The notes below the pieces were generated by a model. That model was not told the origin of the DNA and made no database searches. It saw nothing but the letters and a program-made list of their open reading frames with translations. A program made the position numbers and the translations under genes. DNA of 64,000 nt from Gloeobacterales cyanobacterium (lineage in GTDB: Bacteria > Cyanobacteriota > Cyanobacteriia > Gloeobacterales > PMM-0068). Shown one piece after another: positions 4,528 to 29,107 of this stretch (the first letter of the stretch is position 1; the number at the start of each line of letters is the position of its first letter). The stretch spans positions 1 to 64,000 of the forward strand of contig JBBRSB010000011.1 in NCBI GenBank assembly GCA_038245785.1, written 5' to 3'.

Positions 4528-4692
4528 GGCTACAGGCGCATCAAGACACAAAAAAAGAGGCAGGCGACTTTCCGTGTTTCGTCTCCACCTCTTTTCCTGT
4601 TTACTCCTCACATCCACAAGAATACACACGCTAAAAAAGTTTGTCAACTATTTTCTGATTTTTCTCCATCCCCCCTAGAACGAAGTGTACTT

Positions 4693-6159
4693 TTGGGCAC
4701 GATAATGGGAGTACAGCTTCTTAAAAAGCAATTTAGGTGTATGACGAACAAATTTTCCCTTCCTTCCTTTTCTTGGATTTGGCCTGTAACAGGTGGGGGA
4801 ATTGTTGCCGGAGCCCTGGTGGCCTGGCTGAACCTACCCATTCAAGTGGAAGCCAGTGTCCAGAATGGCCAAAAAGGCGTAGACCCACGCATCCCAATTG
4901 CCGTAAATCTCGTTGGCTGGGGTGCACAGATACAACACGTAGAACTTTCCACAACCAAAGGTAAAGTGGTCAAAAAAGTTTCACAGCCCCAGAAAGCATC
5001 AGACTCAGACCGCTTGCTTATCGGTGATCTAAAGCCCAGTGAGAGTTATCAATTGAGCATGGCGGCCACCCGCGAATTCCCTCAGGAACAATTGGTCAAA
5101 ACGGTACAATTTTCCACGCTCAAGCAACCAGAGCTTGTCACTGAGCCGCCAGAAGTTTTACCCAAGGATAAAACGATCCGCCTGGAATTTTCTGCTCCCG
5201 TTACTCAGGCAGAAGTCAAAGGCATCCCTGCCCAAGTAGAGATTTCCGCCGATGGCAAGACGGTCATGCTGAAGCCACAAGCCTATAAACAGGGCGAAAA
5301 ATACAGTGTAGAAGTCACAGGACTTGGAGAGCAGAATTACCCTATCGTCCCCGTCAAATTCAAAATCAATACCCCTCCGGCTCTGACTCTGGATGCTTCG
5401 ATAGAAGATAAACGGCAAAGTCTAGGGGTAGGAATGCCCTTGGAGCTGAAGTTCAGTCAAGTTCCTGACAATCCAGAAGCCCTCACTGAAAAACTAACCC
5501 TAGAACCCCTTCTTCCAGGGAAATGGAAATGGATCAATCGAAGGACCCTCCGCTACCTCCCAGAGGATGGAGTGTGGCCAGCTAAAACCAGCTATACGCT
5601 CACCGCAGATTTACAAGGTTGGGAAACCGCCGATGGTTCCTGGATTGAAGAACCGCTGACCACCACCTTCGGTTTTGGCCCAGACCATCGATTTGAAGTA
5701 GACCTCTCTAGCCAACGGGCTATGGCTATTGAAAATGGCAAGGTAGTCCGAGCATTCAAAATCAGCAGTGGTAAGGGCGCAACCCCCACAGTGGTCGGGA
5801 CATTCTATATCTACCGTCGTGTGAAGCTTAAAACGATGACCAGTGGCGGTGACCCCCAAGGCCCAGGATTCTACAGCGTAGATAACGTCCCTTTCGTTCA
5901 ATATTTCCACAGAGGGTATGCTTTCCACGGAGCCTGGTGGCACAACAATTTTGGCCGTCCGATGAGCCATGGTTGCATCAATATGAGCACCCAAATCAAA
6001 AACGCCAGAAGCGTTAACGAGGATGCTGGCTGGCTCTGGAAATTTGGAGCAGTAGGCACCCCTGTAAAAGTCTATGGCAAAGCCCCAGGGACCGTCGCAA
6101 GGGCCACAAATTCCAGTCGTCGCGTTCGCAGCAATACCGAAAGAACCGTAAACCAATAA
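4693..6159 (+). CDS. L,D-transpeptidase family protein with N-terminal membrane anchor and Ig-like domains
   Basis: C-terminal YkuD motif 'AFHGAWW...MSHGCIN'; hydrophobic N-terminal segment. True start probably ATG 4741. Confidence 0.85.
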   Translation: MGTIMGVQLLKKQFRCMTNKFSLPSFSWIWPVTGGGIVAGALVAWLNLPIQVEASVQNGQKGVDPRIPIAVNLVGWGAQIQHVELSTTKGKVVKKVSQPQKASDSDRLLIGDLKPSESYQLSMAATREFPQEQLVKTVQFSTLKQPELVTEPPEVLPKDKTIRLEFSAPVTQAEVKGIPAQVEISADGKTVMLKPQAYKQGEKYSVEVTGLGEQNYPIVPVKFKINTPPALTLDASIEDKRQSLGVGMPLELKFSQVPDNPEALTEKLTLEPLLPGKWKWINRRTLRYLPEDGVWPAKTSYTLTADLQGWETADGSWIEEPLTTTFGFGPDHRFEVDLSSQRAMAIENGKVVRAFKISSGKGATPTVVGTFYIYRRVKLKTMTSGGDPQGPGFYSVDNVPFVQYFHRGYAFHGAWWHNNFGRPMSHGCINMSTQIKNARSVNEDAGWLWKFGAVGTPVKVYGKAPGTVARATNSSRRVRSNTERTVNQ

Positions 6160-24831: not shown

Positions 24832-25497
24832 GTGCTCAACATGTCCTGGTCCAACGCAGGCAATTTTTTAAAATATCTACGCATGTTTGGCTGTGCGACC
24901 CTGATGGGGCAGGCGTTGCTTATGGCACCGGCCCAGGCGGAAGGATGCGCAGACACCGGTTATGAAGCGATTCAGGCCTATACCTACCTCAACCGATTTC
25001 GGTCCGAACCCCAGGCCTATGCACAAAGACTTGGCCTCAACTTGGGCTACAACAGCCCAGCACCCCAACTTCGTTGGAATGGGCAATTGGCTGCCATTGC
25101 CCGTCAGGTAGCCGAGCGGATGGCCACAGGCAATTACTTTGCGCACCGGGACCCCGATGGTCGAGGTCCTAATCAGCGGGTTGCATACGCAGGCTATAGC
25201 CTGCCTGCTGATTATCCTCGTGATCCTGAAGCTAACAATCTTGAATCACTTGCAGCTGGAGCTCCTGACGGCATTGAAGCCATTAACCAATTAGTCCTTG
25301 ATGCTGGTGTATCTCCTCCCTCTCATCGGGTGCACATGCTAGCCCTTGATTCTTTCTATCGGGAACATTCTGAGGTCGGCATTGGTGTTGCCTGCGTACC
25401 GGAGAGTACGTACAAGTATTACTATGTAGTGCTAACGGCGCCTAAGGCAGTAAATCGCCAAATGGCCGAAGCTCCTAGTGCAAGGTCATTTCGCTAA
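24832..25497 (+). CDS. Secreted CAP/SCP-domain protein
   Basis: Signal peptide ending 'AQA'; 'LRWNGQL', 'MATGNYFAH.DPDG', 'ESLAAG', 'SHRVHML', 'EVGIGVA'. Confidence 0.85.
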   Translation: MLNMSWSNAGNFLKYLRMFGCATLMGQALLMAPAQAEGCADTGYEAIQAYTYLNRFRSEPQAYAQRLGLNLGYNSPAPQLRWNGQLAAIARQVAERMATGNYFAHRDPDGRGPNQRVAYAGYSLPADYPRDPEANNLESLAAGAPDGIEAINQLVLDAGVSPPSHRVHMLALDSFYREHSEVGIGVACVPESTYKYYYVVLTAPKAVNRQMAEAPSARSFR

Positions 25498-25501
25498 TAT
25501 C

Positions 25502-26578
25502 CTAGCGATGGCGTGACCAAGGATTTATGCGTGCGTTAACCCGTGTTTGAACATATTTAATATCCAGGCGCACACTGACAGAGAGCAATCGATGTTCTGT
25601 CGGACTCCAGAGCGCGTCTAGTCGTGACTGCAACATCTCAAAAACCGTGTTACCCACAAGGTCTTTTTGCCAGAGTCTCGTGACACAGTCAGGCAAAGAG
25701 ATTCCCCAGAGGAACTCTGCCAATCTAAGCGGTAGGGACATAGCTCTTGGATAACGAGAACTGCCTATCCTCAAAGCAATGACCTCCCAATCCCAGGTGG
25801 ATTCGTAATAATCCATCAGGCGGCCTAGCTCACCAATATATCCATAGGTGGACTTGAAGAGCAGTTCTGGACGTGGTTCGATGAATAAATGTCGAGCAAT
25901 ATGGCTGCACAGATAAACACACAAATCTTCTGGAGCGAGGACTTTAGCGCCGTATAGCCATGGTGTTGCCCGATTAAATATCGCCTCTTCGTCCCCGATA
26001 GGAAGATAGTCTGGGGCCAGGCGATAGTGTAAATCCACTACGCTCATCTGCTGGGCTCCTGGCCCTAAGCGTTGGTATGGAGGGAGTTCATGGTACCAAA
26101 AATCCAGAGAAGTGATCGGTTGCACAGGCCCCCCGCCATAACCCAGTCTCCGTAGAACGACCTCTGTTTGAGGAATGTCAACTGGTTGCACCCATAGGTC
26201 GAGGTCTCCAAAAGGACGAAGAGTCGGGTCTTCTGACCAAAGGAGTGGACCGATATGAGGACCTTTAAGCACTATAGGAAAAATTCCATCCTGAACAAGC
26301 GCTTTACAAACTTCAGCGAGCTCACGATTGAGCCATGGTACGCTAATGCCCGCTTGGACATAGGCGCGGCGCAAACGAGCTTTTAGCGTTGGTGGTAGCG
26401 TTGGCGCTTGGGCCTCTACGACAAAGCTACGATAGGCAGCAAGCGTTAGGCCGCGAGCTTCGATGTAGGCGATTAGTGCTCCCCATGCTTCCTCTGAAAG
26501 CGCTTCTAACCCTGGGAGGGTACTGCGTTGCTGAGGAGGACAACTTAGATAACGGACAAGCGATACAGCAAGATCCAT
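25502..26578 (-). CDS. Nucleotidyltransferase family protein (type found in lasso-peptide and HPr-rel cassettes)
   Basis: 'IVLKGPHI', 'RPFGDLDLWV' (DxD), 'VDLHYRL', 'CSHIARH'. Confidence 0.85.
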   Translation of the reverse strand: MDLAVSLVRYLSCPPQQRSTLPGLEALSEEAWGALIAYIEARGLTLAAYRSFVVEAQAPTLPPTLKARLRRAYVQAGISVPWLNRELAEVCKALVQDGIFPIVLKGPHIGPLLWSEDPTLRPFGDLDLWVQPVDIPQTEVVLRRLGYGGGPVQPITSLDFWYHELPPYQRLGPGAQQMSVVDLHYRLAPDYLPIGDEEAIFNRATPWLYGAKVLAPEDLCVYLCSHIARHLFIEPRPELLFKSTYGYIGELGRLMDYYESTWDWEVIALRIGSSRYPRAMSLPLRLAEFLWGISLPDCVTRLWQKDLVGNTVFEMLQSRLDALWSPTEHRLLSVSVRLDIKYVQTRVNARINPWSRHR

Positions 26579-26581
26579 AGA

Positions 26582-27439
26582 CTATGGCACTTTGTTCGAA
26601 GCAGAGGTCTCTTGAAGTAGTCGTTCCAATGCAGTAATTGTCTCATCCAAATTGCTATGGGTCATCTGGTAGGCTTGTACGCCATCTACTAGAGCGCGGA
26701 GGATACCAAATTGGGAAGAGGTCTTTTCAGCGGAAACAAGCAAATTGTTGACCAATAGCATCCAGGTCTGGGCCGGACGTAAGCGTTTTAGGCAAAGAGC
26801 CTCCCCTGGTCTATATTCTGGGAATACAACCAAACATGGAACTTTAGAAATGCCCCATTGGCGAGGCCGGTAAAATGTCTCGGACAACGTATTTTCCATC
26901 TCAAGACAGTCCAAGGAAGGTATCTCATAACCCTCCTTAGAACTTAACTGCTGAATTACCCTTATAGTTCCCGCATCTACATGAAAGCATCGAGGGAAAG
27001 GCTGTACCTCCAACGTATGCGGATCCAATAGGATGATGTCGTCTGTGTAGGAAACAAATCCACGAGCCATTAGAGCTAGAGTCAGCGTCGTTTTTCCATA
27101 TCCGGAAGGCGCCAGTAGAAGGACCACTCCATGCTCATTGGCAACAGCGCCCCCGTGAAGTTGGCATCCATCGGTATGTGCTGCCACCGCTTCAGCAAAC
27201 AACCACCATTCACAAAACTGAATAATCTCTGTACAATTTCCCCAGTGGCATAGGGTTGGGGTCTGTGCATAGTAGGTTTCTCGCTCCAGACCGATAATAA
27301 CTTCTAAGAAGTTTGGGGGCGTCTGGGAAACCCAAAAAGGATGAAGCAATCTTTCTAAAAGAGCCATGCATTCTATAGGACCTTCAATACTGAAAGAGCT
27401 ATGGAGAATTTGGAAATTTTCCCGTTTTACTGCACTCAT
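26582..27439 (-). CDS. HprK-related P-loop kinase
   Basis: 'LHGGAV', Walker A 'APSGYGKTTL', 'YTDD' acidic pair, 'PFPR'; this motif order is that of the HPr kinase fold. Confidence 0.85.
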   Translation of the reverse strand: MSAVKRENFQILHSSFSIEGPIECMALLERLLHPFWVSQTPPNFLEVIIGLERETYYAQTPTLCHWGNCTEIIQFCEWWLFAEAVAAHTDGCQLHGGAVANEHGVVLLLAPSGYGKTTLTLALMARGFVSYTDDIILLDPHTLEVQPFPRCFHVDAGTIRVIQQLSSKEGYEIPSLDCLEMENTLSETFYRPRQWGISKVPCLVVFPEYRPGEALCLKRLRPAQTWMLLVNNLLVSAEKTSSQFGILRALVDGVQAYQMTHSNLDETITALERLLQETSASNKVP

Positions 27440-27738
27440 ATCGAAAGTGGGGATACCAGTAGGTTCTTTTGCTGAAGAATCTGCAAAAAATAAGTGACAT
27501 CTTCTTCTATCTTGGCTACAGAAATCTCAGAAGCAGAAGCAAAACATTCTTCAAGTGCAGCTACAATCTTTTGGAAATCATAGCTCCCATCACAACAATC
27601 CCAAACTAGCGCAGCTGTAGCATTTAACTCATGAGCCACACTGGTGACAGGGTCAAAGATAACCACACTGCCATCGGCAAGATATTCTGTAAAAACATCG
27701 CTACGAGCAGTGGGATTGGCGGAAAGGGCAGAAGTCAT
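27436..27738 (-). CDS. PqqD-family RiPP recognition element (RRE), stand-alone
   Basis: 100 aa; 'VVIFDP...AHELNATAALVWDCCDG', 'IVAAL...F', 'IEEDVTYFLQILQQKNLL'. Confidence 0.9.
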   Translation of the reverse strand: MTSALSANPTARSDVFTEYLADGSVVIFDPVTSVAHELNATAALVWDCCDGSYDFQKIVAALEECFASASEISVAKIEEDVTYFLQILQQKNLLVSPLSI

Positions 27739-27747
27739 AGATAGCGT

Positions 27748-28290
27748 CTAATGGATAACGACGGGGGTTCCTTCTTCTAATTGATCGTACAAATATGAAA
27801 CGTCTTCATTACTCAGGCGAATGCAGCCATGGGTGATAGCTTTTCCTAGTGAATTCTGGTTTTCTGTTCCATGGATCCCATAGTCGTCTTCCCCAGCCTT
27901 CTTAAATCCAATCCAGCGGACTCCTAGAGGGTTAGCTGGATCTCCTTCTTTATAGACCACAGAAGATTTCCAAGGGTTCTGCCAGATTGGATTTTCTACC
28001 ATTTCCATGACTTCAAAATTTCCTGTTGGCGTTGGCGTTGAGGATTTACCCACAGCCACAGCCATTTCCTTAAGGATGGCTCTATCACCTTGATGTAACC
28101 GTAGAACGCGGTCTGCCAAGGATACCTCTACCCACATCAACTCATTATCTGGAGTTTGAACGGTACCGATAGAGGTAGAGAGCTCTTCAGCCCATACTCC
28201 CCCAGCAGTACCAATCCAAAATAGACATATTCCCAGAGTCACTGAAATCAGCTGCAGAAAAGTTCTGCGCTGGGGATGATACGCGTCCAC
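27748..28290 (-). CDS. L,D-transpeptidase (YkuD) with twin-arginine signal peptide
   Basis: 'QRRTFLQ' followed by a hydrophobic region ending 'VWA'; 'VAVGK..TPTPTG', 'NPLGVRWIG', 'YGIHGT', 'THGCIRL'; GGAGG upstream of the GTG start. Confidence 0.9.
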   Translation of the reverse strand: MDAYHPQRRTFLQLISVTLGICLFWIGTAGGVWAEELSTSIGTVQTPDNELMWVEVSLADRVLRLHQGDRAILKEMAVAVGKSSTPTPTGNFEVMEMVENPIWQNPWKSSVVYKEGDPANPLGVRWIGFKKAGEDDYGIHGTENQNSLGKAITHGCIRLSNEDVSYLYDQLEEGTPVVIH

Positions 28291-28302
28291 AGCGACAACC
28301 TC

Positions 28303-28830
28303 CTACCACAAACCCCGAATTGCTCTTTTTGGCCCTTCGGTGCTCTGAGGCCCTTTGCGCTTGAGTCCTCTTTTGCGTCTCAGGGGCTCAGGAGGCAAGG
28401 TAGCACGAGGTCCAGCAGGCCCCAAAGGACTTCCTGGAGTTCCAGCTGCGCCAGGGACACCCCCTTCTGCAACAGTCGTTCCTGGGGCAATGGGAGAACC
28501 GCCTCCAGCGGGAGCTTCACCAACTAAAGGAAGAAGTCCAGCCGCCGCTCCTGCACCGCCACCTCCAGCCGCCGCTAGGCCGCCCAAGACAGGAATACCA
28601 GCGAACGGTAAGAAGCCAGCACCATCGCCGCCACCGCCACCACCGCCTGCTAAGCCTGAAACAACGCCCTGAGCCCGGACCAACTCAGAATGCAAAATTT
28701 GAGGGGCTACGTAGAGAGCAGCACCGCCCACTACCGCTTTTTTGACAATTGAACGCCGCGAGAGGCGCTTTTTATCTTCAGTAAGTGCTTCTGAAGACAT
28801 GTCTTTTGACTTCTCATCCGGTTGGATCAT
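28303..28830 (-). CDS. Gly/Pro/Ala-rich protein with Tat-like leader; putative substrate of the RRE/kinase/nucleotidyltransferase cassette
   Basis: SD GAGGAG; 'LSRRSIVKK', 'YVAPQI', 'VRA/Q' cleavage-like site, poly-Gly, basic tail ending 'IRGLW'; first gene of the operon. Confidence 0.7.
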   Translation of the reverse strand: MIQPDEKSKDMSSEALTEDKKRLSRRSIVKKAVVGGAALYVAPQILHSELVRAQGVVSGLAGGGGGGGDGAGFLPFAGIPVLGGLAAAGGGGAGAAAGLLPLVGEAPAGGGSPIAPGTTVAEGGVPGAAGTPGSPLGPAGPRATLPPEPLRRKRGLKRKGPQSTEGPKRAIRGLW

Positions 28831-29107
28831 AACTAATAGCTCCTCTTTCCACCTAAAATATCAAAAAAACCAAGAGATCAAGCGGCGTACTCAAAAAGTA
28901 GTTTAGAGCACCCTTGTTTACACAATCCTAGAGTATACCGATAAAGGAAGCATCAGTAGATGCATTGATTCTGCCGTGCGGTCTACCGTAAATTTCCCCA
29001 GATAGCCTGAGGCCAGCAAAATGCGACAGAAGTCTAAATTATCAGCATTAACCTTAATTTTTGTGTATCCTTCTGTTTCCGAATTATGAAGAGAAGTCTG
29101 GCCGCTC

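Follow-up and report, generated by a model that had tools for sequence, protein, structure and literature searches.

The leader of a 175-residue precursor (P0001), encoded at 28303..28830 on the minus strand of the window, as we call the whole 64,000-nucleotide stretch of Gloeobacterales DNA analyzed here, combines a Tat-like signal with a YxxP motif of the type bound by RREs, a co-occurrence that exceeds chance. On balance we favor a reading in which this single leader jointly serves RRE binding, modification of Ser58 and Tat export. The same precursor ends in a variant of P-V-R-G-L-W-stop, which we take to be a cyanobacterial C-terminal tag, and it is encoded beside a dedicated L,D-transpeptidase. 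This pairing is new here, and both tag and cassette transpeptidase are features beyond the earlier note on this DNA, which had proposed the dual leader.

The precursor runs from its leader through a Gly/Ala/Pro-rich mature part (58% G+A+P) to a basic tail and an RGLW end, matches no Pfam or NCBIfam family above cut-off, and is preceded by a ribosome-binding site, GAGGAG (28840..28845, minus strand), 9 nt 5' of its ATG. It heads an operon of five genes on the minus strand, spaced by 13, 9, -4 and 3 bases: the precursor; a secreted, cassette-specific YkuD-family L,D-transpeptidase (27748..28290; PF03734, 91.7 bits); a discrete RRE of the PqqD family (27436..27738); an HprK-like kinase (26582..27439) whose His95, GxGKT loop and Asp133-Asp134 are invariant; and an NTP_transf_5 nucleotidyltransferase (25502..26578; 97.2 bits) with its KG...D-L/I-D motif intact in 6/6 genomes. 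The RRE scored 53.8 bits against PF05402, where the cut-off is 23.4, and is thus a genuine RRE. The best NCBIfam match of the kinase, TIGR04352, fell below its cut-off (84 bits vs 200), as did the match of the RRE to TIGR04353 (16.8 bits vs 35). These two profiles describe the kinase and PqqD protein of the HPr-rel-A system, with which the operon shares the adjacency of RRE and kinase and for which the literature searched held no paper under these names. Scanning for promoters and terminators gave matches at chance level only.

Among 14 genomes of the order Gloeobacterales, the precursor was found in six, and the kinase and a close orthologue of the cassette transpeptidase (E 2.5e-49 or better) occur in the same six; nine of the 14 have a transpeptidase match when a distant paralogue is counted. 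The five-gene order, with few bases between genes, is kept in these six genomes from two families, being intact in the source genome (G000), G002, G008, G012 and G013 and split over two contigs in G001. The kinase had no match in 400 other genomes of the phylum (E 1e-8), and neither a precursor search of genome contigs nor a leader search of metagenome contigs gave a confirmed match. Four of the ten genome matches in the precursor search were dropped as low-complexity sequence with stops, and three of the seven matches in a homologue search (P0013, P0014, P0016) were dropped as unrelated. A gene for a secreted CAP-domain protein lies convergent with the operon at 24832-25497 on the plus strand of the window; it holds the same place in G002, G008 and G012 and was not seen in G013.

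Conservation of the leader and its export signal

Translation of 28303-28830 (minus strand) confirmed that residues 23-59 had been read exactly and placed at the correct coordinates. The twin-arginine motif S24-R-R-S-I-V-K30 (28741..28761, minus strand, as are all leader features) is followed by an uncharged h-region of 17 residues, A32-S48 (28687..28737; mean hydropathy 1.22), which encloses the predicted RRE-binding motif Y40-V-A-P43-Q-I45 (28696..28713), of the form [YW]xxPx[LVI] according to PMC13381572. By the (-3,-1) rule, two candidate signal-peptidase sites then fall within 28666..28680: V51-R-A53/Q54, with Ala53/Gln54 at 28669-28674, and A53-Q-G55/V56, which is in the register of the linear polyphosphorylated peptides (LPP). 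Ser58 (28657..28659), the predicted phosphorylation site at Tyr+18, is the first Ser, Thr or Tyr past Ala53, as had been claimed.

The distances between these elements are fixed, with 15 residues from RR to Tyr and 18 from Tyr to Ser in 6/6 genomes and in 25/25 homologous proteins; searches with either the leader or the full-length precursor had found these 25, which come from about five lineages. The homologue alignment that the earlier note had proposed as a check came out in its favor for YxxP and Ser58, both kept at fixed spacing throughout, and YVAPQI, named there as a YxxPx(L/I)-type motif, is conserved beside identical cassettes. The Ser at Tyr+18 was outside the pattern used to select the 25 homologues. 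Across the seven rows of a leader alignment, RR, K, G, L, Y, P, S, V, A and the Ser at Tyr+18 never change, while the residues flanking this Ser vary among homologues. When 39 Tat-like N-termini of the genome were picked by a TATFIND-type rule, some of them false frames, only the precursor had [YW]xxPx[hydrophobic] 6-30 residues after RR.

Two kinds of relative vary in what follows the leader. At L016, L022, L017 and P0012 the stretch right after the conserved Ser has grown into PG or PGTP repeats, expansions which imply that the N-terminal mature part tolerates length change like a spacer. P0015, a 70-residue protein on a JGI contig of 5946 bases, has the same leader register including Ser at Tyr+18, without the G/A/P body and without the C-terminal tag.

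Support for a Tat signal is divided. TATFIND-type rules require an RR motif, a stretch of 13 or more uncharged residues and an AxA site, and six of six cassette leaders pass, with 13-17 uncharged residues after RR. The curated Tat profiles gave a different answer: TIGR01409 matched one of seven leaders, at E 0.13, and PF10518 matched none. The precursor copy here has Ile-Val where the Tat consensus has Phe-Leu. The suggestion that SRRSIVK is Tat-like thus holds by the rule and by the invariant RR and K, but not by the curated profiles. Named language-model neighbors are mostly Tat-signal families (0.85-0.87), which we treat as a lead only, and the single match of a leader profile to the PDB, the CueO Tat signal, came at E 0.77, too weak to count. 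TatC and two S26 signal peptidases are encoded in the genome, away from the operon. We consider the precursor likely to be exported by Tat.

VRA/Q had been put forward as a signal peptidase I site. Its coordinates are right and its V and A are invariant, but the second AxA-type site, A53-Q-G55/V56, exists as well, and its -1 residue is G, S or A in all homologues. A cut after Ala53 is favored because most of the wider leaders finish with A-x-A, after which comes Q, S or A, and because the second site would put Pro at +2 in two lineages. We consider cleavage after Ala53 the better supported prediction and cleavage after Gly55 a rather unlikely one. Further along, the middle hydrophobic stretch of the precursor reaches a 19-residue hydropathy of 1.55 (1.2-1.8 in seven homologues) and is followed by the basic tail. 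Together they could form a membrane anchor with the tail inside, for which the stretch scores poorly on an insertion scale.

Modification genes and their kinship with the LPP pathway

LPP clusters, exemplified by lppA-K-B-S-D-N of Paenibacillus alginolyticus, encode an SpI-like peptidase, an RRE, an HprK kinase, an NTP transferase and an exporter of the MsbA type (Popov et al. 2026, PMC13381572). According to the same paper, the LPP leader consensus is YxxPxVLxHQxIxFETxxS, with Tyr at -16 and the phosphorylated Ser, the sole phosphorylation site in LPP, at +3. Tyr40-Ser58 (YVAPQILHSELVRAQGVVS) aligns to this consensus by eye and without gaps; Y, P, [VI], L and S are in register, HQ is replaced by SE, and FET by AQG. 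This gap-free alignment makes Ser58 the equivalent of Ser3 in LppA, so the residue singled out earlier as a candidate modification site sits at the position phosphorylated in LppA. By this analogy, Ser58 is probably phosphorylated.

The pocket of the RRE points the same way. In the LppB crystal structure, Asn33, Asp70 and Phe74 bind the Pro kink and the Tyr (PMC13381572), and a HMMER alignment to 9x8z, numbered from the residues given in that paper, matches them to Asn39, Asp80 and Phe84 of the RRE, which are invariant across the six cassette RREs. Asn33 and Asp70 matter for binding by LppB and are also common in PQQ and lasso RREs (PMC13381572), so they mark a working pocket and not LPP membership. 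Complex prediction of the RRE with the leader gave 0.54 vs 0.01 for the best of three controls, with runs agreeing in at least 90% of contacts and a partner pLDDT of at least 56. In calibration, 116 of 157 solved pairs attained the mark for this prediction, as did 2 of 215 mismatched ones; 18 of the 157 solved pairs and both mismatched pairs lay at the mark but at 0.60 or under, and since like complexes are already solved, a pass may reflect structures that the predictor had already learned. The expectation that a complex model would show Y40 and P43 in the RRE cleft was thus answered in part, by a score weakly in its favor, but no interface was returned in which these residues could be seen in the cleft. 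We consider it very likely that the RRE binds the leader.

Catalytic motifs are intact in both the kinase and the transferase. BsfB1, which raises phosphorylation of Ser3 by BsfK (PMC10368454), is a precedent for an RRE serving a kinase, and the pseudomycoidin transferase adds hexoses onto the phosphate (PMC8498205). LppN was inactive in a heterologous LPP system in B. subtilis (PMC13381572), which makes the nucleotidyltransferase step unsure.

Compared with LPP as described in PMC13381572, the operon shares a discrete RRE with the Asn/Asp/Phe pocket, an HprK-like kinase, an NTP transferase and the absence of a cyclase, as well as a precursor in the range of 35-200 aa with a conserved N-terminus, a variable C-terminus, YxxPx[VI]L and Ser at Tyr+18, and, as predicted here, a cut of the SPase-I type. 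Unlike LPP, it has neither a dedicated SpI-like LppS (of archaeal type in LPP) nor an MsbA-like LppD, its leader is extended by a twin-arginine n-region and an h-region, and it has a transpeptidase in the operon, a C-terminal tag and a cyanobacterial host. PMC13381572 describes LPP as confined to Bacillota, and the terms 'twin-arginine', 'Tat' and 'transpeptidase' are absent from its main text. With the dedicated peptidase and exporter both missing, we regard the operon as a variant of LPP and not as a member. The LPP pathway is still a closer model than lasso peptides, as there is no cyclase here. The phosphorylated and phosphoglycosylated lasso systems (BsfK/BsfB1, the paeninodin kinase, pseudomycoidin K/N) resemble the operon in their YxxPxL leader, RRE, HprK-type Ser kinase and nucleotidyltransferase, whereas B2, macrolactam cyclase, ABC exporter and Thr(-2) are absent here and the mature part is unstructured and 120 aa long.

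The absence of B2 had been explained by signal peptidase taking the place of a dedicated leader peptidase. No B2, cyclase, ABC exporter or SipW-like match was found in the cassette loci, and no S26 match near the operon, but B2 is present elsewhere in the genome, in a lasso cluster on contig C3 that is complete with RRE, B2, cyclase, kinase, exporter and transferase of its own. B2 occurs in 3/14 genomes of the order and in 2/6 cassette genomes. In the other four (G001, G002, G012, G013) it was not found, which at 93-97% completeness makes its absence likely rather than proven, and the cassette RRE is their only PqqD match. Supply of B2 in trans from the C3 cluster was therefore rejected as a general need. 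Replacement of B2 by a signal peptidase has published precedent in LPP, where an SPase-I-like enzyme removes the YxxP leader (PMC13381572).

The C3 lasso cluster (G000:C3, about 125.8-133.4 kb; L004:9866-17419) lies next to glycosyltransferases and encodes two precursors of 48 aa each with identical YLKPEL leaders. Having two RREs that read YxxP, the genome invites the question of cross-talk posed in the LPP paper (PMC13381572). Other RRE clusters in the order are L121 (G011:C146), where a short acidic precursor is accompanied by radical-SAM-like and ABC genes, and the lasso-like L122 (G008:C1:2.27-2.29 Mb), which encodes two kinases together with a methyltransferase-like protein and a nucleotidyltransferase.

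Leaders of related architecture were also found in other phyla. Ten of the at least 45 loci with related kinases (among the matches listed) have, on the kinase strand and no more than 3 kb away, an RR + [YW]xxP leader, compared with 0 on the other strand and a mean of 0.175 in 200 shuffles, for a pattern written after leaders had been inspected. These ten loci come from Acidobacteriota, Chloroflexota, Actinomycetota and Latescibacterota. Ser at Tyr+18 was present in 0/12 leaders from other phyla, so among the matches listed the LPP register is seen only in Gloeobacterales and P0015. At two of the ten loci (L047, L048) a SipW-like S26 peptidase is encoded 2-4 kb from the kinase, which means that an RR leader is not always paired with loss of a local peptidase. 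A Pfam scan covered 59 ORFs from 11 wider loci, many of them wrong frames in GC-rich DNA. Actinomycetota leaders at L057 (three copies), L061, L047, L048 and L052 read RRRFL...W[AG]xP[AV][IV], precede Cys-rich mature parts and adjoin RRE/kinase/transferase and polysaccharide genes. At L033 and L037, directly upstream of the RRE, a leader of the same type is joined to folded domains (carboxypeptidase-regulatory-like, IPT/TIG).

The C-terminal tag and the transpeptidase

The basic tail of the precursor (28303..28377, minus strand) ends P-K-R-A-I-R-G-L-W-stop. An [IV][RK]GL[WG] end after a basic stretch is present in 24/25 homologues, the exception being P0015, and three lineages end in GLG. As a DNA pattern, PVRGLW-stop occurs at 70 places in 40 of 61 cyanobacterial genomes, compared with 21 for the reversed control. 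Thirty tag loci were read, yielding 14 that we judge to be real tagged proteins, 11 loci without a C-terminal match and 5 short or antisense frames. Nearly all of the 14 have signal peptides, and the tagged proteins are mutually unrelated (fasciclin, DUF1400, NPCBM, unknown). In a set of 151 genomes, 99 of 114 tag matches end in a stop codon.

Most tags and most transpeptidases are not neighbors, but those that are exceed expectation. Among the matches listed, 6 of 79 tags have a transpeptidase no more than 2.5 kb away vs 0.16 expected, where the 79 are the tags in genomes with a listed transpeptidase and the listing covers about 150 of some 250 enzyme matches, plus part of the other 100 from a second search; the six are spread over four genomes and three families. 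This excess suggests that the transpeptidase may be the enzyme that reads the tag. With a looser tag, 4/35 non-cassette transpeptidase loci have a tagged neighbor and 31/35 have none within about 1.5 kb. Two more neighbor cases are L150/L156 and L186, and at L160, L183, L184 and L185 the tagged gene is directly upstream of the transpeptidase on the same strand, as in the operon. Adjacency of tag and enzyme is seen again in six or more other families, where the tagged proteins are unrelated. Tags are found in 57/127 genomes with the enzyme and in 3/24 without it, those three being 62-79% complete; four of the 24 were deduced from tallies by family, and related genomes do not count as independent. 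The cassette transpeptidases form their own clade (100/100), apart from the other paralogue of the order, and tag-adjacent transpeptidases are scattered in the tree and do not form one clade.

The best fold match of the transpeptidase is B. subtilis YkuD, and its catalytic His140 and Cys156 are invariant. Anchoring by L,D-transpeptidases (LDT) is known for E. coli Lpp (LdtA/B/C), Dickeya OutB, and Coxiella and Brucella OMPs, and the known protein substrates give an amine, from Lys or an N-terminal Gly/Ala (PMC12729407). The operon resembles these systems in its secreted YkuD enzyme with His/Cys intact and in a short terminal motif on an envelope protein, and departs from the Lpp type, whose substrates donate that amine, in a tag that ends GLW/GLG. 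No Lys occurs in the last 15 residues of 10/10 tagged proteins beside other cyanobacterial transpeptidases. Anchoring through a Lys acceptor was rejected, since the tag ends GLW/GLG without a fixed Lys and the mature part of the homologue P0019 contains no Lys at all. If the enzyme reads the tag, the tag would then be an acyl donor, as it is in sortase substrates, or a non-covalent ligand. We see about an even chance that the transpeptidase acts on or binds the precursor, and covalent anchoring through the tag is a tentative prediction. Equally speculative is the wider idea that small secreted cyanobacterial YkuD enzymes are sortase-like, recognizing a PVRGLW-type tag, trimming its end residue(s) and joining the protein to peptidoglycan.

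A link between the GLG ending and a TNGC active-site variant was dropped, as it follows lineage and the Asn variant is also present in unrelated clades. The N-terminus of the transpeptidase has a Tat-like QRRTFLQ in the source genome only; it is not conserved in the five orthologues, and we make no Tat claim for this enzyme. Outside the window, G000:C11:77654-78376 (L140) encodes a secreted NPCBM-domain protein ending PVKALW, an ending kept in the G001 and G002 orthologues, and this protein is a second possible substrate of the tag system. At L186 (G033:C1:3250-3254 kb), two genes ending [IV]QGMW lie divergent to one for a transpeptidase that belongs to the same family. The window also encodes, at about 4528-6156 on the plus strand, a third YkuD-domain protein, which is long and has Ig-like repeats. 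The literature covered, mostly non-subscription papers and the LPP work without its supplements, has no description of a Tat/YxxP leader, of the tag or of a cyanobacterial tag-LDT link.

A proposed sequence of events and competing explanations

In the mechanism we propose, the RRE would bind Y40-x-x-P43-x-I45 in the cytoplasm and help the HprK-like kinase phosphorylate Ser58 with one or more phosphates, after which the nucleotidyltransferase would probably add a sugar or nucleotide to the Ser58 phosphate. RRE-YxxP binding, Ser phosphorylation, kinase stimulation by an RRE and phosphoglycosylation are taken from published relatives; the export route, cut site, order of events and role of the transpeptidase are what we infer. 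A bound RRE would cover the h-region and so would retain the precursor until it is modified, much as Tat proofreading chaperones hold back their cargo. Once released, the precursor would leave via Tat and housekeeping signal peptidase I would cut off the leader, most likely after Ala53, which would explain an operon without B2, LppS or an ABC exporter. The product would be a roughly 120-aa, unstructured periplasmic phospho(glyco)protein and not a small lasso or LPP peptide. Its RGLW tag would probably be handled by the co-encoded transpeptidase, so that the product is held at the cell wall. The dual leader at the center of this scheme is supported by motif conservation, the RRE pocket and the register of Ser58, against which stand the weak complex prediction and the unmatched Tat profiles.

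The same leader could instead be a RiPP leader only, its RR and hydrophobic stretch forming a kinase recognition helix or a membrane tether and its product staying in the cytoplasm or at the inner membrane. LPP and lasso leaders function without export signals (PMC13381572), the basic tail would fit the cytoplasm, and the curated Tat profiles are not matched. We nevertheless find this improbable given the invariant RR, the K five residues on, the run of at least 13 uncharged residues and the AxA site in six of six genomes, an operon without exporter or leader peptidase, a C-terminal tag otherwise found on signal-peptide proteins, and a neighboring enzyme that is secreted. The opposite simplification, that the precursor is an ordinary Tat protein with an incidental YxxP and that RRE, kinase and transferase act on something else, for instance lasso precursors from another part of the genome, draws on the full C3 lasso cluster with its two YLKPEL precursors and on a plain Tat signal in the genome (C2:190659) that also has a PQIL stretch. 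It is made very improbable by the RRE, kinase and transferase that the lasso cluster has of its own, by four cassette genomes in which no second RRE or B2 was found, by the single YxxP among 39 Tat-like N-termini, and by the invariance of Tyr, Pro and Ser(Tyr+18).

A further possibility accepts the dual leader and disputes only the transpeptidase, which would remodel peptidoglycan under shared control and never touch the precursor, leaving the tag to be read by a protease, a PDZ-type domain or a wall-binding protein. In its favor, 73 of the 79 tags have no listed transpeptidase nearby, 31 of 35 non-cassette loci have no tagged neighbor, the tag-adjacent enzymes are not one clade, none of the 45 listed wider kinase loci has the cassette-type enzyme, and known LDT substrates give an amine (PMC12729407) where the tag has no fixed Lys. 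The enzyme is, however, encoded between precursor and RRE in 6/6 cassettes and forms its own clade (100/100), and tag-enzyme adjacency recurs in those other families. We rank this the most probable of the three rivals and still unlikely.

For the trio of RRE, kinase and nucleotidyltransferase, which is catalogued but has lacked an explanation, the dual-leader mechanism offers a substrate and, in Ser58, a site that can be tested. It also suggests that one sequence can be both RiPP leader and Tat signal, the RRE then being the gatekeeper of export. Should the more speculative sortase-like scheme also be true, the operon would be a complete assembly line in which the leader directs both phospho(glyco)sylation and export by Tat, and the tail directs covalent anchoring to the wall. 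It would then be a RiPP-like pathway with a structural envelope protein as its product, and part of a general cyanobacterial protein-to-wall sorting system. For a C-terminal tag that is widespread in cyanobacteria, the link between tag and transpeptidase points to a candidate enzyme. The discussion of PMC13381572 describes the function of LPPs and phosphorylated lasso peptides as unknown, and an envelope-fixed version of an LPP-like product would point to a surface role.
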